A stretch of 64,000 nt of DNA from an uncultured Draconibacterium sp. (GCF_963674925.2 NZ_CAXXRE010000003.1:2047199-2111198), one strand, 5' to 3'. Shown: positions 39,314-49,001, counted from the first letter of the stretch. Notes: a model not told the origin generated them from the letters alone. A program made the numbers and translations.

Positions 39314-40300
39314 ATGAACAAACTAAAACCTATTATTTTATTGATTGCAATTGCACTAACGGCTTTTGTTCCGGTGCAGGCACAGCGCGTTGAAAGCGAC
39401 TCGCCATTAATTGGCAAGTGGGATTTAACTATTAATATGACTCAACAACAGATCGAAAATCTCGGTCTTTTTCGACACGGTTTAATGGCTTCCGACGGTT
39501 TCCCCGGATGGCTTATGGTTAAATTATCAGGTTTCTCTACTTTAACCGGCTACTATGTTGGCTACGAGGGAAGTGCCCGTCCAATTGCCGAAGTCGTTTA
39601 CGATGAAGCTACGGATAAATATCATTTCACCATTCCGCCGCAATGGATGGATATTGATGATCTTTATTTTGAGTTTTCGCTAAAAGACGATAAACTTACA
39701 GGCTATCAAATGCTCGATGGTAATAAGCTGGAATGGACAGGTGTTCGGGCTCCATCACTTAAAAGAACTGAACCGCCAATTTGGGGAAATCCTATTGAGA
39801 TGATTACCGAAAACATGGAAAAATGGGTTATTCCGCAGAACAACAAATTTCAGATGATTGATGGTGTAATGGTTAACACTGAGTCGGGCGGTAACCTGGT
39901 TAGTATTCAGAAATTTGAGGATTTTAAACTTCACGTTGAATTCCGTTATCCGGCAGGAAGTAACAGTGGAATTTATCTTCGTGGCCGTCACGAATTGCAG
40001 ATTGAAGATTCAAAAGGAAGAACTGACGATGTGAGTATTGGTGGTATCTACGGGTTTATCGCTCCGGCAGTTTATGCGGCTAACGCACCGGGCGAATGGC
40101 AGACTTATGACGTGACACTTGTTGGGCGTCATGTTACAGTTTTGCTGAATGGAACAGAAGTTATTTCCAATCGCCCTATTCCCGGAATTACAGGTGGCTC
40201 GTTGGATAGCAAAGAAGGAGAACCTGGCCCATTTCAGATTCAGGGGGATCACGGACCGGTGGAATTCCGCAAATTTACCGTTACTCCGGCGGTTAACTAG
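39314..40300 (+). CDS. DUF1080 (3-keto-glycoside hydrolase/eliminase-like) secreted protein
   Basis: FEDFKLHVEF, NSGIYLRGRHELQI, GGIYG, GEWQTYDV, LQGDH-like IQGDHG. Confidence 0.85.
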   Translation: MNKLKPIILLIAIALTAFVPVQAQRVESDSPLIGKWDLTINMTQQQIENLGLFRHGLMASDGFPGWLMVKLSGFSTLTGYYVGYEGSARPIAEVVYDEATDKYHFTIPPQWMDIDDLYFEFSLKDDKLTGYQMLDGNKLEWTGVRAPSLKRTEPPIWGNPIEMITENMEKWVIPQNNKFQMIDGVMVNTESGGNLVSIQKFEDFKLHVEFRYPAGSNSGIYLRGRHELQIEDSKGRTDDVSIGGIYGFIAPAVYAANAPGEWQTYDVTLVGRHVTVLLNGTEVISNRPIPGITGGSLDSKEGEPGPFQIQGDHGPVEFRKFTVTPAVN

Positions 40301-40336
40301 ATTATGTGCTAAATATTCCAGAACATAAATTTACTT

Positions 40337-40366
40337 AAAGAGAGGCCTTTTCGGCCTCTTTTTTTT
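40337..40366 (+). terminator. Intrinsic terminator
   Basis: agaggcc-tttc-ggcctct followed by T run. Confidence 0.75.
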
Positions 40367-40474
40367 CTGAAAGTCCCCATCTTTTTATGTGTATTGCCGT
40401 TTGAGTTTCGTCCGGGAGAACCATCTGGCTTCGATCTGCTTTCTTCGCCGGACGATTTCCTTTTGTCATTTCAT

Positions 40475-40633
40475 CCCGGCGCTACGCACCGGGTTATTCA
40501 CATTAGACGCTTCCAGCGTCATAAAAACTTGCAATTGCAACATTGCAGATCAATAAACTCATCTTAATTTTGTAATTCAGCTTAATATCCCGAAGGGATA
40601 AAATGTGACTAACCTCGGGTGAAACCCGGGGTT
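40475..40633. repeat. Inverted pair of bipartite REP-like elements
   Basis: Hairpins at 40475-40493, 40506-40520, 40586-40600, 40611-40633; linker GGTTATTCACATT on plus and GGTTAGTCACATT on minus. Confidence 0.7.
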
Positions 40634-40880
40634 GATGTGCGGTAATTTAAAGGCGCAATCAGTAAGCTGTTCAATGCGCAATCGTTGTGTGCGCCTTGTA
40701 ATCTGGTCATTTTTATGAAATGCGTTTAACAGACTTTACTTTCATTCATGTTGGTGATTCCCGTGAATCATGATTGTTTTGTGCTATTCGGAAAAAGCAC
40801 GCTTCCTTAAATTCGAGTCAGACAAGGAGGGATTTCTATTTTTGCTAACTTACAGCACTAAACCAATAAAACGTAAGACA

Positions 40881-42029
40881 ATGTTGAAATCTTCTAAACT
40901 TTTCCTGCTGTCCGGATTAATGCTCATCACATTTTCGCAATGTTCAAATAAAACCGAAAAGTCGGTTAAGTTTTTGCTCCCTTTTACAAAAAATGCAGAA
41001 GTAAATCCGTGTTTATTGCCAACTACTAATCGCAGCTTTGTTTGTCCGGTGCGCCAAACGGAAGTGCTTTGGGAAGAAAAAGATGTTTTTAATCCCGCAA
41101 GTGTGGTAAAAGGCGACACGCTTTTTTTACTTTATCGTGCCGAGGATGTGCTGGGTAAATATCACGGAACTTCGCGTATTGGGCTGGCGTACAGTCTAGA
41201 TGGTTATCATTTTGAAAAATACAATGAACCGGTGTTGTTTCCCGATAATGATGAACTGAAAAAGTTTGAGTGGGAAGGAGGATGTGAAGATCCGCGGGTT
41301 GTGGAAGATCAAAATGGTGTTTATTACATGACTTACACGGCATATGACGGCGATAAAGCGCGTTTATTTGTGGCAACTTCAAGTGATTTGCGGCAATGGA
41401 CCAAACACGGTTCGGTATTTAAAAAAGCCGGAAACGAATATGTTGACATGTGGTCGAAATCGGGTTCAATATTGTGTCGCGAGGAAAACGGAAAAATGAT
41501 TGCCCAAAAAGTAAACGGTAAATACTGGATGTATTGGGGCGAGTCGAATATCTACATGGCAACTTCCGACAACCTGATTGATTGGAATCCTATTTTAGAA
41601 ACCGATCCCGATAAAATGGTGATTGATAAAATGCGCAACTACACCGTTCCGTTTAAGATTTTATTTTCAACGCGAAAAGGAAAATTCGACAGCGAATTAG
41701 TTGAGCCCGGTCCGCCGGCATTGTACACCGACAATGGATTTATATTCATTTACAACAGTAAAAACAGCCCCGACTTTGGAGACAAGAATCTGGCGCAAGG
41801 CTCTTATGCAGCCGGACAAATTCTTACCGATAAAAACGACCCGACAAAAGTGCTGGATCGCCTGGATAATTATTTTATCACTCCTGATCAACCGTTTGAA
41901 ATAACCGGACAGGTAAACAACGTGTGTTTTGTTGAAGGACTGGCACATTTTAAAAATAAATGGTTGTTGTATTATGGTACGGCCGACTCGAAAATTGCGG
42001 TTGCTGAATCGGGATCAGTTGATTTTTAA
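40881..42029 (+). CDS. Glycoside hydrolase family 130 protein, lipoprotein
   Basis: DVFNPA, LLYRAED, SRIGLAYS, GCEDPR, MTYTAYDG, WSKSG, VEPGPP, VCFVEGL, YYGTADS; FSQ-C lipobox; start ATG 40881. Confidence 0.88.
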   Translation: MLKSSKLFLLSGLMLITFSQCSNKTEKSVKFLLPFTKNAEVNPCLLPTTNRSFVCPVRQTEVLWEEKDVFNPASVVKGDTLFLLYRAEDVLGKYHGTSRIGLAYSLDGYHFEKYNEPVLFPDNDELKKFEWEGGCEDPRVVEDQNGVYYMTYTAYDGDKARLFVATSSDLRQWTKHGSVFKKAGNEYVDMWSKSGSILCREENGKMIAQKVNGKYWMYWGESNIYMATSDNLIDWNPILETDPDKMVIDKMRNYTVPFKILFSTRKGKFDSELVEPGPPALYTDNGFIFIYNSKNSPDFGDKNLAQGSYAAGQILTDKNDPTKVLDRLDNYFITPDQPFEITGQVNNVCFVEGLAHFKNKWLLYYGTADSKIAVAESGSVDF

Positions 42030-42173
42030 AGTATCGCTGATTTGGGAAATCAGCATGTTGTCTTTATGATATAGATCGGCGTGTTCGATAAACTTTACTT
42101 GCAGTTGGAAACACCGCTTAAAGAAAGTCTTCGAACCAAAGAAATCTGGTTCTGTCATTCAAAACAAGCTATT

Positions 42174-42244
42174 TTGTAATTCATGGTACGGTAATGGCGT
42201 GATCGTTTTTTAACAATTTTCAACCTCGTTTTGTGCCCGGATTT
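42174..42244 (+). repeat. Degenerate att-like junction copy upstream of the gsh operon
   Basis: caattttcaacctcgttttgtgcccggattt vs caatttcgacctctttttttgtgcccggattt at 14664-14695; minus frames read NPGTK/EVEN and ITPLP. Confidence 0.55.
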
Positions 42245-42414
42245 GTTACAAGACAATTTGGTGGCTGGTTGCATTGGCATTTCACCCAAACTTTAAATTA
42301 CAGGCAATATTTCATTCTTTGGAAACTATTCTGAAGACAATGTGTTAATTTCAAAAGTTATTACGAAAAGGGATGGTTAATCGCGATGGGCGATTTCCCG
42401 AAAAGCAATTTATT

Positions 42415-43419
42415 ATGATGGGAAAAAGCAATTATAATTTTAAACCGCTATCTGGTTATGAGCATTTTGAAGCCACCACGCAGATTATTATTGTCGAAAT
42501 TCTCCGTCGTAATTTAGCTTTTGAGATTATTGATGCCGATAATAATCTTATTTCAGTTCAGCACAACAATAAAGAATATATCATTCATGAAGGGACCATT
42601 TCGGATGCCAACAGCTTGATTGCCTTTTGGATATCAAACGATAAATGGATGACCCGGCAGTTTCTTCAGCGAAAAGGTATTCATCAGGCAAAAGGTATTT
42701 TGATCAAGCCCGGGTATCAGGCCGACGTTTTGGATGCGATTCCTTTACCGGCAGTGGTAAAACCAGCTGACACTGATCATGGAATTGCAGTAAGTACAAA
42801 TATTAAATCCCGCGAAGAGCAAATTGCCGCCATTAACAATGCTTTTAAATATTCCAAAAAAGTTATTGTTGAAGAATTTTGCCCGGGCCAGGAATATCGT
42901 TTTCTGGTAATTGATTATGTGGTTCGGGCCATAGCCTGGCGCGAACCCGCCAATGTTAGCGGCGATGGGAAATCTTCCATTCAACAATTGGTTAACGAGA
43001 AGAATAAAGGACGCGGAACGGATTACACGCACCCTTTACTAAAAATAAATATTGATGAGGAAGTGATCCGACATTTGAATGCGCTTTTGATGACACCTGA
43101 AACGATTTTGAAAAATGGGGAGAAAGTGTATTTACGGAAAAATTCAAACCTTAGTACCGGTGGCGACAGCATCGATGTAACCGATGATATCCCGGATTTT
43201 TACAAAAATGTAGCCGTTGAAGCAGCAAAGTCGGCAGGCCTGAAAATTGCAGGAATCGACATTATAATTAAGGATATGGAACAGCCTGCAACGCATGATA
43301 ATTACATTGTGGTAGAACTGAATGCTCCGGCCATGTTGTCGATGCATGACTATCCGTACATCGGGAAAAACCGCCATGTGGAAAAATATGTTCTCGACAG
43401 CATTCTGAATTCGAAGTAA
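42415..43419 (+). CDS. Stand-alone ATP-grasp ligase homologous to the glutathione-synthetase domain of GshF/GshAB
   Basis: TQIII.E..RR, VVKP, EYRFLV, PANVSGDG, YLRKNSNLSTGGDSIDVTD, GIDIII, MHDYPY; probable start ATG 42415/42418. Confidence 0.8.
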   Translation: MMGKSNYNFKPLSGYEHFEATTQIIIVEILRRNLAFEIIDADNNLISVQHNNKEYIIHEGTISDANSLIAFWISNDKWMTRQFLQRKGIHQAKGILIKPGYQADVLDAIPLPAVVKPADTDHGIAVSTNIKSREEQIAAINNAFKYSKKVIVEEFCPGQEYRFLVIDYVVRAIAWREPANVSGDGKSSIQQLVNEKNKGRGTDYTHPLLKINIDEEVIRHLNALLMTPETILKNGEKVYLRKNSNLSTGGDSIDVTDDIPDFYKNVAVEAAKSAGLKIAGIDIIIKDMEQPATHDNYIVVELNAPAMLSMHDYPYIGKNRHVEKYVLDSILNSK

Positions 43420-43450
43420 CTGATCGAGGCAAACAAACAAGAAAGTCAAA

Positions 43451-44818
43451 ATGACAGAAAAAGAAAAGAAGATAGAAATAAACCATAAATCGCAACTGAT
43501 CGACTATTTCGAACGAGGAAGTAAACCGCCGGAGAGGTGGGGAATCGGTACCGAAAACGAAAAGTTTTTATTTCGCAAAAAAGATTTCGGGCGCCTTTGT
43601 TTTGAACAGGATGGCGGAATTTTGAAGATCCTGAACAAGATGCAACAGGATGGCTGGGCGCCAATTCTTGAGAACGATATCGCAATCGGCCTTCGGAAAA
43701 ACGGTGCTTCCATTACGCTGGAACCCGGCGGGCAATTTGAACTATCGGGCGATAACTTTAGCACGATTCACGAAACGTACCGCGAAACCAAAAAGCATTT
43801 TCAGGAACTCAATACGATAAGTCAGTACTATAACTTTTTTAGTCTGCCAATGGGCGTTGACCCGTTGTCGGATGTGGCCGACGTGCCGTGGGTGCCTAAA
43901 GAGCGCTACCGTTGGATGCGCAATTACATGCCTACAAGAGGTGAGCTTGGATTGCATATGATGACAAACACCGCATCAACGCAGGTAAACCTGGATTTTG
44001 GCAGCGAAAGCGATATGGTAAAAAAGATGCGCGTGTCGCAGGCATTACAAGCGGTTGTTACTGCCATTTTTGCTAACTCTCCGTTTTCGGCAGGAAAACC
44101 CAATGGCTATTTATCGTATCGTTCGCATATCTGGAACCATACCGATCCGGATCGCTGTGGTTTTTTACCATTTGTTTTTGACGAGGGATTTGGTTTTGAG
44201 CGCTGGGTGGACTATTTACTGGATATACCAATGTATTACATTTTACGCGAGGGGGAATATATTACGGCAAACGGACTTACCTTTCGTGGATTTTTTGAGG
44301 GCAAGCATTCGCTAAAGCCAACTCAGGAAGACTGGGAAAATCACGTTTCCACTATTTTCCCGGATGTACGACTCAAACAGTTTATTGAAATGCGGGGTGC
44401 TGATGCCAGCTGTGTATCGCACATTGCAGCGGTTTCGGCTTTGTGGGTTGGCTTATTGTACGATGGTGAAAGTCTGGCAGAAGCCGATGAACTTATTTCG
44501 AAATGGGACGTTGACACCATGCAGGAGCTTCGTGCCCAGGTACCGGTAAAAGCGCTGAATGCAGAAAGCGGCAATCTGCACGCCGGAACAATTGCAAAAC
44601 AAATTTGCCGCATTGCTTCGGATGGACTTTCCCGGCGCGCGAAGGTGTGTTGCTGCGAAGATGAAAGTAAGTTTTTGGCTCCGGTTCGCGAAATTACCGA
44701 AAGCGGAATTACTGTGGCAGAAAAACTTTTGAAACGCTTCCACGAGGGCAACGAGACGCTGCCGGAATTGGTGTATAACTGGCAAAACGAACAGATGCAA
44801 AAATATATTGACGCCTAA
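43451..44818 (+). CDS. gshA: Glutamate--cysteine ligase, plant/alphaproteobacterial type
   Basis: GIGTENEKF, ITLEPGGQFELSG, PKERYRWMRNYMP, QVNLDF, FANSPF, IFPDVRLKQFIEMRGAD, WVGLLYD. Confidence 0.9.
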   Translation: MTEKEKKIEINHKSQLIDYFERGSKPPERWGIGTENEKFLFRKKDFGRLCFEQDGGILKILNKMQQDGWAPILENDIAIGLRKNGASITLEPGGQFELSGDNFSTIHETYRETKKHFQELNTISQYYNFFSLPMGVDPLSDVADVPWVPKERYRWMRNYMPTRGELGLHMMTNTASTQVNLDFGSESDMVKKMRVSQALQAVVTAIFANSPFSAGKPNGYLSYRSHIWNHTDPDRCGFLPFVFDEGFGFERWVDYLLDIPMYYILREGEYITANGLTFRGFFEGKHSLKPTQEDWENHVSTIFPDVRLKQFIEMRGADASCVSHIAAVSALWVGLLYDGESLAEADELISKWDVDTMQELRAQVPVKALNAESGNLHAGTIAKQICRIASDGLSRRAKVCCCEDESKFLAPVREITESGITVAEKLLKRFHEGNETLPELVYNWQNEQMQKYIDA

Positions 44819-44836
44819 ACGGCAAAAACAGGAATC

Positions 44837-46603
44837 ATGTTATCGAAACTTAAATTCTTATTAAAATACACGCATCAATACCGGTGGTGGTACACGGGAG
44901 GAATTATCTTTCTGATACTTACTGTCTGGACTTCGATTACGATTCCCGGTTTTATTCAGAAAACCATCGACCTGATAGCCGCTGGCCGTGAGGGAAATGA
45001 AGCTGAGTTTCATAAAAATGTATTGATAATTGTTGGATTGGCTGCCGGACTGATTTTGGTAAGAACGCTTTCACGGATTTTGATCTTTTTCCCGGCCCGC
45101 CTGATTGAACGACAATTAAAAGGCGAAATGTTTCAAAAACTGGCCTCGTTCGGAAAGGATTATTACGATAAAAACTCAACTGGAAATATTATTTCGCGAG
45201 TGAATAATGATATTAATGGGGTGCGAATGATTACCGGATTTGGCATTTTACAAATCGGGAATATTCTGTTATCCTTGTCGCTTACGCCATACATGATGTG
45301 GAAATTGTCACCCATGCTTACGCTGTACTGTGTAATTCCAATGGTAGTGGTTTTTGTAATTGTTCGTTATGGAATGAAGGTGATGGTTAAAAACACACAC
45401 GCAAGAATGGATACCTTGCAAAAACTTTCAGGGAAAATCATTTCCTTTCTTTCGGGAAACAGCGTAATAAAAAGCTATAATATATACGAGCATGCCGAAA
45501 ATGTTGTTCAAAAGGACAATATTGATTATTACGATGCCACGCTAAAAATCTCGTGGATTCGCTCCTTTGTAATTCCCTTGCTTGGCAACCTCGGACAGAT
45601 TTTAAAAATCATCATCTTTTTTGTTGGTGGTATGTATGTGATAAATGGCAAATTTACCATTGGGCAGTTGACAGAATACATTGCGTATGCCGCGCTGCTG
45701 GCCCATCCGATTATGGGATTGGGATGGGTACTCACCGTTTTTCAGCAAGGATTTGTGGGAATCAGCAGTATTCAAACCATTATGGACAGGGAAGGAATAG
45801 ATGATGAACGGAAGGCGCTGCCCGAAACGAAAAAGCAAGAACTTTTTAAAGATGGAATTCACGTTAGAAACCTGAATTATACCTACCACAACGGTGATAA
45901 ACCGGTATTGAAAGATATTTCATTTTCGATTAAACCCGGCCAGATTGTTGGCATAACCGGTAAAGTTGGATCGGGTAAAACCACATTAATTCAGTGTTTA
46001 AATGGCTATTTACGCCCCGGTGAAGGCCAGATCTTTTATGGAGATGTTGATGCCGATTCGATAAGAAGTGAAGACATTCGTTCAGTTGTAAATACAGTTA
46101 GTCAGGAAGTTTTTCTGTTTTCCGATTCGATTGAAAACAACATCGGTTTAACCTCTGACGAAACGATTGACGAGAAACGTTTTGACGATGTGATTTACAA
46201 AAGTGCTTTTGCCGACGAACTGTTGCGTTTTCCGAAGAAAGGGAAAACAATGGTGGGCGAAAAAGGAATTATGCTTTCGGGAGGACAAAAACAACGCATT
46301 AGCCTGGCACGGGCACTTTACACGCAAGGCGAGCTGTTGATTCTCGATGATGTGTTTTCGGCTGTCGACACAGATACCGAGCGCTTTCTGATAAAACAAA
46401 TTGTGGAAAACCATGCGGTAAAAAGTCTGGTAGTGATTTCGAACCGCGTTAGTGTGCTGGAGAAAACCGATTTTACCATTGTACTGGAAGATGGGAAAAT
46501 GGCGGCTATAGGAAATCATCAGGAATTATTGAAACAATCTGACTTTTACCGCGACATCTCGAAATTGCAGCAGGAAGGTGAAACAAAAAAGGAGAAGGTG
46601 TAA
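44837..46603 (+). CDS. Heterodimeric ABC exporter subunit (non-catalytic Walker B)
   Basis: 6-TM N-terminus; GKVGSGKT, LSGGQKQ, LILDDVFSAVD (Asp for Glu), ISNR (no His switch). Confidence 0.9.
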   Translation: MLSKLKFLLKYTHQYRWWYTGGIIFLILTVWTSITIPGFIQKTIDLIAAGREGNEAEFHKNVLIIVGLAAGLILVRTLSRILIFFPARLIERQLKGEMFQKLASFGKDYYDKNSTGNIISRVNNDINGVRMITGFGILQIGNILLSLSLTPYMMWKLSPMLTLYCVIPMVVVFVIVRYGMKVMVKNTHARMDTLQKLSGKIISFLSGNSVIKSYNIYEHAENVVQKDNIDYYDATLKISWIRSFVIPLLGNLGQILKIIIFFVGGMYVINGKFTIGQLTEYIAYAALLAHPIMGLGWVLTVFQQGFVGISSIQTIMDREGIDDERKALPETKKQELFKDGIHVRNLNYTYHNGDKPVLKDISFSIKPGQIVGITGKVGSGKTTLIQCLNGYLRPGEGQIFYGDVDADSIRSEDIRSVVNTVSQEVFLFSDSIENNIGLTSDETIDEKRFDDVIYKSAFADELLRFPKKGKTMVGEKGIMLSGGQKQRISLARALYTQGELLILDDVFSAVDTDTERFLIKQIVENHAVKSLVVISNRVSVLEKTDFTIVLEDGKMAAIGNHQELLKQSDFYRDISKLQQEGETKKEKV

Positions 46604-48384
46604 TGAGCACAGGCAAAAGCAATATTATCAAAAATGTAGACTGGAAGTTGTTCCGAAAGTTTGCCGGCTATTTTAAACCGCACAAAAAGTGGTTTTTCCT
46701 GAGTCTCGCTTCCATTCCTATCACCACCGGGGCAGGTATTTTATTTCTTTGGTTGATTGAAGATATAATTGATAATTACATCGTGCCGGGCAATGTGGAT
46801 GGCTTGATCAGGCAAACCATTTTTCTGGCCATAGCATTGCTTCTAAACATTCTGTTCGACGGAGTTTACAGTTACTCTTTTTCAAAAGCAGGAGGGTTGG
46901 CTGTTGTTGATTTACGCAGGCGTTTATTTGGAAAATCCTTACGTTTTCCGTTGAGTTATTTTGATAAAAAACCAATTGGTGTAACCTTATCGCGCCTTAC
47001 CAGCGATATGGAATCGGTTTCGGATTCGTTTGCTGCCGGAGTGCTTGGTTTACTGGCCGACAGTATAAAAACGCTGGCCTTGGTGGGTTATCTTTTTTAC
47101 ATCAACTGGCGCCTTACGCTGGTGTTGTTACTGGTGGTTCCGGTAATTATTCTGGTGATAAACTTTCTGCGGAAAAAGATTAGAAAAGCATACAATACTT
47201 CACGAACCAGTTTGGCAAAATCGGCCGCTTATTTGCAGGAAGCTTTAACTGGAATGAAAACGGTTCAGCTTTTTGCTGCTGAAGATAAGGTGCTGAATAA
47301 ATACGACAATCTGAACAAAGAATTTTGCGACGCACAAAATAAATCGAATGTTTACGATTCATTTCTTTATTCGATTGTGGAAGGGATCACTTCAGTAGCC
47401 ACGGCATTGGTGATTTGGTATGGCGCTATTCAAATATGGGATTACGGTTATACGTTGGGGATTCTGATTGTGTTTGTAACTACTTTGGAGCGTCTTTTTG
47501 TTCCGGTAAAACAGTTTGCCCAGCAAATTTCAACTATTCAGCGGGCCATGTCGGCGCTTGAGCACATTAGCGAAATGTTCGATCAGCAAGTTGAAGATCC
47601 GAAAGCAGAATCATCACAAACGGTTCCCGAAGCAATAGCTTTGCAGGAAATCGAGTTTAAAAATGTAAGTTTTCGGTATTCGGAAGATACGCCGGATGTG
47701 CTGAAAGATGTATCGTTTAAGTTGCAAAAAGGCGATCGTCTGGCGTTAGTCGGAACAACAGGATCGGGGAAATCTACGATTATCCGGTTATTGGCGAAAA
47801 CATACACCGGTTATCGCGGATCGATTAAAATTAATGGAACCGAGTTGTCGGATATACCCATCGGACAGGTTCGAGAAACGATCTCCATTATGCAACAGGA
47901 TATTTACATGTTTAACGATACCGTTGAATTTAATATCTCGCTGGGGCGAAAATATATTTCCCATAGTGATGTGGAACAGTCGGCATCTTTTGTTTATGCC
48001 AATTATTTTATCGATCAGTTGCCCCACGGCTACAACTTTGTTATTCAGGATAATGGCGATAATCTTTCGAAAGGACAGGCACAGTTAATTTCTTTTGCAA
48101 GAGCCATTGCCGGAAACAGCGAGTTGATAATCCTGGACGAAGCAACCAGTGCTGTTGATTCAATTACCGAGCAGTACATACAAAAAGCGATTGCCAATAT
48201 TTTTTCTAAAAAAACGGTAATTGCAGTGGCGCATAGGTTAAGCACTATTAAAAATTCAAATATGATTTTAGTGTTGGAAGACGGGCAGATTATCGAACGT
48301 GGTAATCACGAACAGCTCCTGAAATTCGGCGGAAAATATGCACGGCTTTTACATCAGTTTGAGGAGGAAGAGCAACAAGCTTAA
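46603..48384 (+). CDS. Heterodimeric ABC exporter subunit (catalytic Walker B, degenerate signature)
   Basis: GTTGSGKS, LSKGQAQ, IILDEATSAVD, VAHRLST; TAATG overlap with the previous gene. Confidence 0.9.
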   Translation: MSTGKSNIIKNVDWKLFRKFAGYFKPHKKWFFLSLASIPITTGAGILFLWLIEDIIDNYIVPGNVDGLIRQTIFLAIALLLNILFDGVYSYSFSKAGGLAVVDLRRRLFGKSLRFPLSYFDKKPIGVTLSRLTSDMESVSDSFAAGVLGLLADSIKTLALVGYLFYINWRLTLVLLLVVPVIILVINFLRKKIRKAYNTSRTSLAKSAAYLQEALTGMKTVQLFAAEDKVLNKYDNLNKEFCDAQNKSNVYDSFLYSIVEGITSVATALVIWYGAIQIWDYGYTLGILIVFVTTLERLFVPVKQFAQQISTIQRAMSALEHISEMFDQQVEDPKAESSQTVPEAIALQEIEFKNVSFRYSEDTPDVLKDVSFKLQKGDRLALVGTTGSGKSTIIRLLAKTYTGYRGSIKINGTELSDIPIGQVRETISIMQQDIYMFNDTVEFNISLGRKYISHSDVEQSASFVYANYFIDQLPHGYNFVIQDNGDNLSKGQAQLISFARAIAGNSELIILDEATSAVDSITEQYIQKAIANIFSKKTVIAVAHRLSTIKNSNMILVLEDGQIIERGNHEQLLKFGGKYARLLHQFEEEEQQA

Positions 48385-49001
48385 AAAATCCCGAAAATTA
48401 CAAGTGCATAAATTATAAAACGCATGTAGCGGAAAAGCGACCACAGTAAGTAGCTTTTAAAATTGTATCCGATAAGGCCCGAAGCAAGACTTACAACAGA
48501 GTGGGGAACCGGCGAAACAGCTCCCAGAAAAACAAAGATGCCACCCCACTTCCGGAGATTGACAATGTGTTTTTGAATTTTGTTTTCGATATGGTTTTTC
48601 ACCGAAGGAATTAGAAACAAACGTGTTCCCAGGAAATAGGAAATTATTCCTCCAACATAGGATAGTGTTGCCAAAATAAACAACGCTCCCCACGGAATCT
48701 CCAATTTCGAGGCCCAGGCAATAAACATTTCAGGAGGTACCAACCCTAAAAATGTTTCGGATAAAAGAAATACCGAATAAATGATCTTTGGCGAATAGGT
48801 ATCCACCAGGTTGTTGAGGATTAAATTAAAATCCAATAGAAAAATTTCGAGGCTAACCAGCAAAAGCACAAACACTGTTGCAATTGTTGCGGCTTTGTAG
48901 GCTGTGCTTTTCAGAAACGGATAAAACTGCGTAATGCGGTAATATCTGTTCAATATCGAAAGGCGCCTGGGGGAGAAGTTATATCGTAAATACCTAATCA
49001 T
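48381..49001 (-). CDS. DedA/YqaA (VTT domain) membrane protein
   Basis: LSETFLGLVPPE, AVSPVPHSVVSLASG, FRYMRF. Confidence 0.7.
   Translation of the reverse strand: MIRYLRYNFSPRRLSILNRYYRITQFYPFLKSTAYKAATIATVFVLLLVSLEIFLLDFNLILNNLVDTYSPKIIYSVFLLSETFLGLVPPEMFIAWASKLEIPWGALFILATLSYVGGIISYFLGTRLFLIPSVKNHIENKIQKHIVNLRKWGGIFVFLGAVSPVPHSVVSLASGLIGYNFKSYLLWSLFRYMRFIIYALVIFGIF

Follow-up and report, generated by a model that had tools for sequence, protein, structure and literature searches.

A four-gene module of Draconibacterium that probably makes and exports a gamma-Glu-Cys-based peptide

We analyzed a 64,000-nt stretch of DNA (the window; NZ_CAXXRE010000003.1:2047199-2111198) from an uncultured Draconibacterium sp., a marine member of the Bacteroidota. 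The window lies on contig C3 of a genome (G000) of 5.8 Mb and 100% completeness. Four consecutive genes in the window, which encode a stand-alone ATP-grasp peptide ligase, a plant-type glutamate-cysteine ligase (GshA), and the two halves of an ATP-binding cassette (ABC) exporter, probably form one module that makes a gamma-Glu-Cys-based peptide, either glutathione or a gamma-Glu-Cys-X analogue, and exports the peptide from the cytoplasm. The parts of this reading differ in strength. We consider it very likely that the product is based on gamma-Glu-Cys and rather likely that export of the free peptide is the main job of the pump, whereas a product that is exactly glutathione is conceivable, with the balance leaning slightly against it. 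The features are as follows.

42415..43419, + strand: stand-alone ATP-grasp peptide ligase, 334 amino acids, as suggested by homology, tree position, the signature H136/W86/S323, and the lack of another second ligase in the genome
43451..44818, + strand: plant/alphaproteobacterial-type glutamate-cysteine ligase GshA (GCS2 family), 455 amino acids, matching TIGR01436, PF04107 (E = 1.5e-69), and structures of plant glutamate-cysteine ligase (GCL)
44837..46603, + strand: ABC exporter half-transporter A (ABC A), 588 amino acids, with degenerate-site residues (Asp after Walker B, H-loop Asn) and a canonical LSGGQ signature
46603..48384, + strand: ABC exporter half-transporter B (ABC B), 593 amino acids, in which the Walker B Glu and the H-loop His are both canonical and the signature is degenerate (LSKGQ)
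42321..42353, + strand: candidate upstream operator/promoter motif, found as a regular-expression match across orthologous loci, with a putative function

The four open reading frames (ORFs) lie head to tail on the same strand, and the first of them can be opened at 42373 or at 42415. We favored the start at 42415 over the upstream ATG at 42373 because the homologues are 333-336 amino acids long and the same-genus orthologue begins at the equivalent Met. Direct reading of the sequence confirmed the close packing given in a preliminary description of this DNA: 31 nt separate the ligase gene from gshA, 18 nt separate gshA from the ABC A gene, and the two ABC genes share a TAATG stop/start overlap. 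The closest named proteins are those of Draconibacterium orientale and D. halophilum.

We scanned species-representative genomes for the locus using an 8-sequence alignment of the ligase, as a diverse 26-sequence alignment was too variable to serve. The scan found this type of ligase at 36 loci in Prolixibacteraceae, Marinilabiliaceae, and other Bacteroidales; matches under about 50% identity were all GshF fusions, including those of Marinifilum, Labilibaculum, and Ancylomarina, which belong to the same group of families. The gene order ligase-GshA-ABC-ABC was complete in 28 of the 36 loci, six loci were cut by contig ends, and two were exceptions (L046 from Mangrovibacterium, and L047). When the flanking ORFs of 38 loci were clustered to look for conserved extra genes, nothing was common to more than four loci. 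Because the flanks are not conserved, the four genes themselves are the conserved unit.

We then counted the genes in an evenly sampled family set of 121 genomes, where an orthologue of the pump was called from ABC subunit A at E <= 1e-90. The ligase was found in 35 genomes. Plant-type GshA stood beside it in 34 of these, always adjacent, and the remaining one was cut by a contig end; the pump orthologue was likewise present in 34 of the 35, the remaining one being a 77%-complete genome. Neither GshA nor the pump orthologue occurred in any of the 86 ligase-free genomes of the family. In an order sample of 151 genomes, one per family, the ligase type was found in three, two of which (G000 and G037) had the pump orthologue, compared with none of the other 148. 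Plant-type GshA was absent from 300 further Bacteroidota genomes. The earlier remark that a plant-type GshA is paired here with a free GshF-like ATP-grasp protein holds, and the counts show this pairing to be rare in the phylum and the ABC genes to be conserved together with the ligases.

This co-conservation holds even where the genes are not linked. All four genomes of genus g162 had the ligases on one contig and the pump orthologue on another; a direct check of one of them, G164, found an unrelated ORF of 508 amino acids after the ligases and both pump genes together on another contig. In G037, from a different family, the pump orthologue is also located apart from the ligases. Because the pump is kept even when unlinked, in one genus and in one other family, its association with the ligases seems to be functional and not just positional. 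We regard this co-inheritance, linked or not, on a changing background as the strongest evidence that the pump would serve the product of the ligases. A suspected disruption of the ligase as a pseudogene in G156 could not be called, the gene being at a contig end.

Fused GshF was present in 10 of the 86 ligase-free family genomes, and no genome carried both systems; this mutual exclusion is consistent with equivalent pathways. Unfused GshF-type ATP-grasp genes directly followed a gamma-type GshA (PF04262) in four of the five contexts examined (L104, L110, L111, and L112). Among the loci compared, the pairing with plant-type GshA is thus seemingly specific to the ligase clade of the window. At L103:6621-10431, an unfused GshF-type ATP-grasp gene has no recognizable GshA beside it; its neighbors encode a DUF2099 protein and a flavoprotein resembling glutathione reductase (Pyr_redox_2/Pyr_redox_dim). 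The DUF2099 protein may be worth considering as a first-step enzyme there.

The identity of the GshA partner, already called plant/alphaproteobacterial-type in the preliminary description, was well supported. Residues 10-442 scored 527.6 bits against the plant-type equivalog TIGR01436 (cut-off, 463.15), in addition to the Pfam match listed above, and residues 13-431 of 455 aligned with the plant GCL structures 6GMO and 2GWC at E = 1.2e-115 (about 390 bits), with long identical blocks. In a search for an origin of GshA outside the order, the best 120 matches listed all came from the group of families to which the window belongs.

The ligase is a single ATP-grasp domain in Pfam, and its NCBI product name is just 'glutamate ligase'. 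In NCBIfam, it best matched the GshF C-terminal module (292 bits), followed by the cyanophycin synthetase G domain (268 bits); neither match reached the whole-protein cut-off. The NAGGN synthetase model matched too. Residues 424-752 of PRK02471 matched the ligase at 292 bits, meaning homology over the full length of the GshF C-terminal module. The nearest solved structures were GshF (3LN7 and 3LN6), followed by CphA1; residues 421-749 of 3LN7 aligned to the ligase at E = 4e-49, and identity to the GshF module was about 35-41%.

We constructed a maximum-likelihood tree of 63 ATP-grasp domains rooted with the RimK of this genome. The ligase of the window and its orthologues formed a clade of their own (support, 100/99), and the GshF modules, both fused ones and unfused proteins of 328 amino acids, formed another (100/100) that did not include the ligase; the two clades were sisters (97/84). 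CphA and tandem multi-ATP-grasp proteins branched outside this pair, and a quick tree of 158 rows had the same topology. The preliminary description had seen in the ligase a GshF-type ATP-grasp domain set free, which the tree and the active-site signature described below do not support. The ligase is better described, as far as these comparisons go, as an uncharacterized lineage that is sister to the GshF module and has a distinct pocket, rather than as a detached GshF domain. Because the sister GshF modules are fused to, or encoded next to, a gamma-type GshA, the wider clade would consist of second-step ligases of Glu-Cys pathways. Many tandem ATP-grasp proteins of the same subfamily were found, 700-2400 amino acids long with two or three domains, forming their own clade between CphA and the pair of GshF and its sister; they are uncharacterized and could be iterative peptide synthetases.

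Three positions distinguish GshF from CphA1 (PMC9427784): the P-loop His267 of CphA1, which is Phe or Tyr in GshF; Glu215, which is Leu; and Arg458, which is Met or Tyr. In our alignments, the GshF rows had Phe/Tyr, Leu, and His/Tyr at these positions (mostly His/Tyr at the Arg458 position in 85 GshF modules, versus the published Met/Tyr), and the CphA rows had His/Gln, Asp/Glu, and Arg. The ligase clade of the window had His136, Trp86, and Ser323 and therefore differed from GshF at all three. These residues were invariant in 10 rows of the clade and in about 70 further members, bar one Lys at position 86. In addition, the clade has Ala-Pro-Ala where GshF has Phe-Asn-Pro. The catalytic framework is kept: both ATP-binding Lys, both Arg, and the Mg-binding Asp/Glu are invariant.

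These results suggest that the ligase likely works like a GshF module, but its predicted substrate pocket matches neither GshF nor CphA1. Its identity as a GshF-type glutathione synthetase is unproven, and glycine as the predicted third residue is not secured, because the ligase stands in a sister clade of its own whose active-site signature is different. We rejected an identity as cyanophycin synthetase: the protein has a single ATP-grasp domain with no CphA N or M domain, carries Trp and Ser at the positions of Glu215 and Arg458, and branches away from CphA. The P-loop His is its sole CphA1-like feature among the three positions.

The third and fourth genes encode half-transporters, each with a transmembrane domain and a nucleotide-binding domain (PF00664 and PF00005), that are about 25% identical to each other; neither reached a named NCBIfam equivalog. 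In ABC A, Asp replaces the catalytic Glu after Walker B, Asn replaces the H-loop His, and the signature is canonical; in ABC B, the Walker B Glu and H-loop His are canonical and the signature is degenerate. The asymmetry was found in every orthologue extracted. Walker B had Asp-Asp and the H-loop had Ser-Asn-Arg in all 31 ABC A orthologues, and all 28 ABC B orthologues had a degenerate signature (LS[K/R]GQ in 27 and ISKGQ in one) with canonical Glu and His. The degenerate site therefore appears to be a maintained design rather than decay. The nearest solved relatives are TmrB and BmrC for ABC A and, among bacterial half-transporters, TM288 and TmrA for ABC B. The TM287/288-like layout with one degenerate ATP site that had been proposed is confirmed and is conserved in all orthologues examined.

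The resemblance to CydDC noted earlier stands only as a functional analogy. The CydD and CydC equivalogs were not reached by the two subunits (200 and 246 bits versus a cut-off of 435 for TIGR02857; 154 and 205 bits versus 329 for TIGR02868), which places the pump outside that family. CydDC of Escherichia coli is described as a glutathione/cysteine exporter, and its NCBIfam name is heme transporter. It is likewise a heterodimeric ABC exporter linked to the delivery of thiols to the periplasm.

We searched the source genome for other enzymes of thiol metabolism. Classical GshB was not found in the genome: the only PF02955 match was a RimB-RimK fusion passing the RimK equivalog, and PF03917 had no match, although this profile was also silent in every genome searched. 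Nor did the genome contain a gamma-type GshA (PF04262), BshC, a glutaredoxin domain, or a GST_N_3 domain (PF13417), and none of its flavoproteins reached the cut-off for glutathione reductase, the two best being lipoamide dehydrogenases. No candidate second-step ligase was found in the genome besides the ATP-grasp ligase of the module. The RimK mentioned above is a single ORF of 460 amino acids on contig C5 (L004:640-2022) with an N-terminal RimB-like retropepsin domain.

One GGT gene and three GSHPx-family genes were present; both families are also found in organisms without glutathione. We tried GGT as a partner in a periplasmic gamma-glutamyl cycle and rejected it for want of any association: 18 of the 35 genomes with the module had GGT, as did 39 of the 86 without. 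Glutaredoxin showed no association either (12 of 35 versus 26 of 86). Within Draconibacterium, five module-free genomes (G154, G189, G215, G236, and G269) each had a glutaredoxin-domain ORF of about 200 amino acids, and the module-bearing G000 and G255 had none, but this anticorrelation fails across the family. The absence of cytoplasmic recycling and consuming enzymes and the presence of a dedicated pump are in keeping with a product that may be used largely outside the cytoplasm.

From these results, we propose the following pathway. In the first step, GshA would join Glu and Cys, as expected from its family membership. In the second, the ATP-grasp ligase would phosphorylate the C-terminal carboxylate of gamma-Glu-Cys and add a third residue; this assignment follows from its homology, its pairing with GshA, and the lack of any other candidate ligase. 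The third residue may be glycine, giving glutathione, or possibly another amino acid, because the residues of the incoming-amino-acid site differ from those of GshF. In the third step, the heterodimeric ABC exporter, in which, as in TM287/288, TmrAB, and BmrCD, one ATP site is catalytic and the other degenerate, would move the peptide over the inner membrane to the periplasm or the medium, a role suggested by the strict co-inheritance. The module would be an old trait, vertically and patchily inherited, of Prolixibacteraceae, Marinilabiliaceae, and a few neighboring Bacteroidales families. Synthesis plus export was also the core of the preliminary description, and this outline stands, as the ligase does not cluster with cyanophycin synthetases in the tree and the ABC genes accompany the ligases; the GshF-type label and the idea of acquisition as cargo do not stand.

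Several observations weigh against this proposal. Members of the family with GshF have no such pump, so glutathione as such does not need one, and in one small genome (G014) the ligases occur without a pump orthologue. Glutathione reductase, glutaredoxin, and GST_N_3 are missing from the source genome, and neither GGT nor glutaredoxin is co-distributed with the module; these absences would equally fit a product other than glutathione. The ligase lies outside the GshF clade and departs from it at all three of the published positions (PMC9427784). With its His/Trp/Ser signature and this tree position, assigning its probable substrate from homology alone is weak, and this applies to every member of the clade. 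That the pump would work outward is an assumption based on its fold.

Several alternatives should be considered. The ligase might add a residue other than glycine, in which case these Bacteroidota would secrete an undescribed low-molecular-weight thiol of the gamma-Glu-Cys-X type via a dedicated pump for use outside the cytoplasm. We regard this specific version as possible but doubtful. Such a thiol would act as a periplasmic or extracellular reductant, or as a sulfide/metal buffer or metallophore, in organisms otherwise without glutathione, bacillithiol, or glutaredoxin machinery.

Alternatively, the ligases could make glutathione for ordinary cytoplasmic use, with the ABC pair acting as a pump for conjugates or the disulfide (GS-X/GSSG export, as in MRP-like detoxification) and not as a free-thiol exporter. 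The identities of the ligase genes are the same under this reading, the nearest solved relatives of the pump are multidrug and peptide exporters, and strict co-inheritance is equally expected if the pump substrates are derivatives of the peptide. However, a genome without GST (PF13417), glutaredoxin, and glutathione reductase is missing the enzymes that make conjugates and recycle the disulfide, and the GshF-bearing relatives manage without the pump. We therefore consider a conjugate pump unlikely.

A product without a thiol seems improbable to us. Here, the two ligases would make a different gamma-glutamyl peptide or else a short polymer, by CphA-like iterative extension or as an osmolyte-type dipeptide derivative, which would then be secreted. 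The CphA1-type P-loop His and the absence of the GshF signature are compatible with this idea, as are the close scores of the GshF and CphA models (292 versus 268 bits), the NAGGN synthetase match, and the tandem multi-ATP-grasp proteins in the next clade out. On the other hand, the partner is above the GshA equivalog cut-off and aligns with plant GCL over nearly its whole length (13-431 of 455), the ligase does not have E215 and R458, the CphA residues for the Asp-Arg primer and the incoming Asp, and it has no CphA N or M domain and groups in the tree with GshF, not CphA.

Some type IV ABC heterodimers import siderophores. The ABC pair could accordingly be an importer with an exporter fold (YbtPQ/IrtAB-type metallophore uptake) that retrieves a metal complex of a secreted thiol peptide, and at locus L102, genes for a TonB-dependent receptor and a PepSY_TM protein do follow the module. 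This neighborhood is not conserved, however, as flanks recur in at most four of 38 loci, no separate exporter is linked to the ligases, and the nearest solved relatives of the pump are exporters, all of which makes uptake very improbable. Finally, although the full clusters are confined to one group of related families, and shared ancestry by itself could account for the synteny, the ligases and the pump can hardly be unrelated neighbors whose adjacency was inherited by chance, since the pump orthologue is confined to ligase genomes (34/35 versus 0/86 in the family and 2/3 versus 0/148 in the order sample) and is kept when relocated, while the surrounding genes are not conserved.

The module resembles several known systems in part. 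The bifunctional GshF (GshAB) of Streptococcus agalactiae, Listeria, and Pasteurella multocida (3LN6 and 3LN7) has a C-terminal module that is homologous to the ligase over its full length, and both would share the C-terminal extension of gamma-Glu-Cys. The ligase of the window differs in that it is unfused, has a GCS2 plant-type partner rather than a gamma-proteobacterial-type domain, and is tied to an ABC exporter; its residues are His/Trp/Ala-Pro-Ala/Ser, whereas those of GshF are Phe-Tyr/Leu/Phe-Asn-Pro/His-Tyr. The unfused GshF-type pairs of metagenome contigs and metagenome-assembled genomes (MAGs), in which a PF04262 GshA precedes an ATP-grasp protein of 328 amino acids, also consist of two separate adjacent or overlapping ligase genes. 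They nest in the GshF clade and keep its signature, however, with a gamma-type GshA in first place and no linked heterodimeric ABC exporter.

The plant/alphaproteobacterial pathway starts with an enzyme of the same family as our second gene (TIGR01436; Brassica juncea GCL, 2GWC/2GWD) and continues with classical GshB, which the source genome does not have, the second step being assigned here to an unrelated ATP-grasp lineage. TM287/288, TmrAB, and BmrCD share with the pump the two half-transporters, the one nucleotide-binding domain with Asp for Glu and no H-loop His, and the degenerate signature of the partner. Those are generalist drug or peptide pumps without a dedicated biosynthetic partner, whereas the pump of the window was found only alongside the ligase pair. 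The G domain of CphA1 (7LG5 and 7WAC) belongs to the same ATP-grasp subfamily and shares the P-loop His, but the window ligase has no N and M domains and no Glu215 or Arg458, and branches with GshF.

We found no published description of glutathione in these taxa, of the ligase/GshA pairing, or of the four-gene unit. In gene-content surveys (PMC6282198), glutathione synthesis is placed in Proteobacteria, Cyanobacteria, and eukaryotes, and Bacteroidetes are predicted to have bacillithiol. The pathway proposed here would escape such surveys, since it has neither GshB nor GshF as its second enzyme. The module would represent a third way to assemble a Glu-Cys pathway, from a plant-type first enzyme and a ligase of the sister lineage of the GshF module, and this ligase clade would be a living outgroup for the origin of the GshF fusion. 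The pump would be a rare case of a 'multidrug-like' degenerate-site heterodimeric ABC exporter for which strict co-inheritance with two biosynthetic genes allows a guess at the physiological substrate, and this opens the substrate question for this class of exporter to direct tests. Should the third residue be something other than glycine, the product would be a new bacterial thiol.

The preliminary description placed a degenerate junction just upstream of the operon and took it as a sign of acquisition as cargo. We found no trace of this. The upstream 385-bp spacer is single-copy in the genome, and its score against the junction repeat of the window was 17, no better than that of shuffled sequence, compared with 65 and 56 for true copies. 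There were no direct or inverted repeats beyond chance around the module and no integrase at its site, and its GC content of 0.42 is normal for the genome (0.408 +/- 0.022).

The module is patchy in the genus, being present in two of seven genomes. In G255, it occupies the same site, between a gene for a 3-keto-disaccharide hydrolase and a VTT/DedA-like gene; in G269, which has no module, these two genes are 2.1 kb apart with two other ORFs between them. The site of the module is, as judged from these genomes, variable within the genus. Since there is no integrase, flanking repeat, junction similarity, or GC deviation, and the ligase sequences are grouped broadly by taxon in the tree, recent acquisition as cargo of the neighboring element is less likely than a long-standing presence with repeated loss, or than exchange between related organisms.

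Relative to G255, where the hydrolase gene is 273 bp from the ligase gene, the window has an insertion upstream of the module (40300-42274) comprising a repeat of about 410 bp and a GH130 (beta-1,2-mannosidase-like) gene. The repeat is a dispersed, non-coding element resembling a miniature inverted-repeat transposable element, located at 40350-40769 between the hydrolase and GH130 genes, and at least 10 further near-full-length copies with 88-95% identity are present on contigs C3 and C5. On the other side, a gene for a VTT/DedA-family membrane protein (48381-49001, - strand) converges on the ABC B gene and overlaps its stop by 4 nt; this neighbor is conserved only within the genus. G255 in turn carries about 6 kb of inserted DNA, with genes for an M48 peptidase and an MscS channel among others, between its VTT and response-regulator genes.

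The 140 bp before the ligase start are conserved with the same-genus G255. A regular-expression search upstream of the ligase start found the motif GGAAACTATTC-N7-(G/C)AATGTGTT followed by TAATTTCA, also written GGAAACTATTC-N7-GAATGTGTT. It lies 78-173 bp before the start in nine of 34 upstream regions from several genera, eight of them matching the expression and the ninth being a one-base variant in the window at 42321-42353, which we regard as a candidate for a putative operator with a -7-like promoter element. In addition, a TAnnTTTG box of the Bacteroidota type was present within 150 bp of the start in 12 of the 34 loci, including all seven Sunxiuqinia loci. The motif and the boxes together suggest that the module has its own promoter region. 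A scan for sigma-70 promoters and terminators gave counts at chance level, the only notable feature being a hairpin after the GH130 gene. At one locus from a Maribellus MAG (L021), a tandem array of about seven copies of the heptamer GGAAGAC lies about 70 bp upstream of the ligase start.

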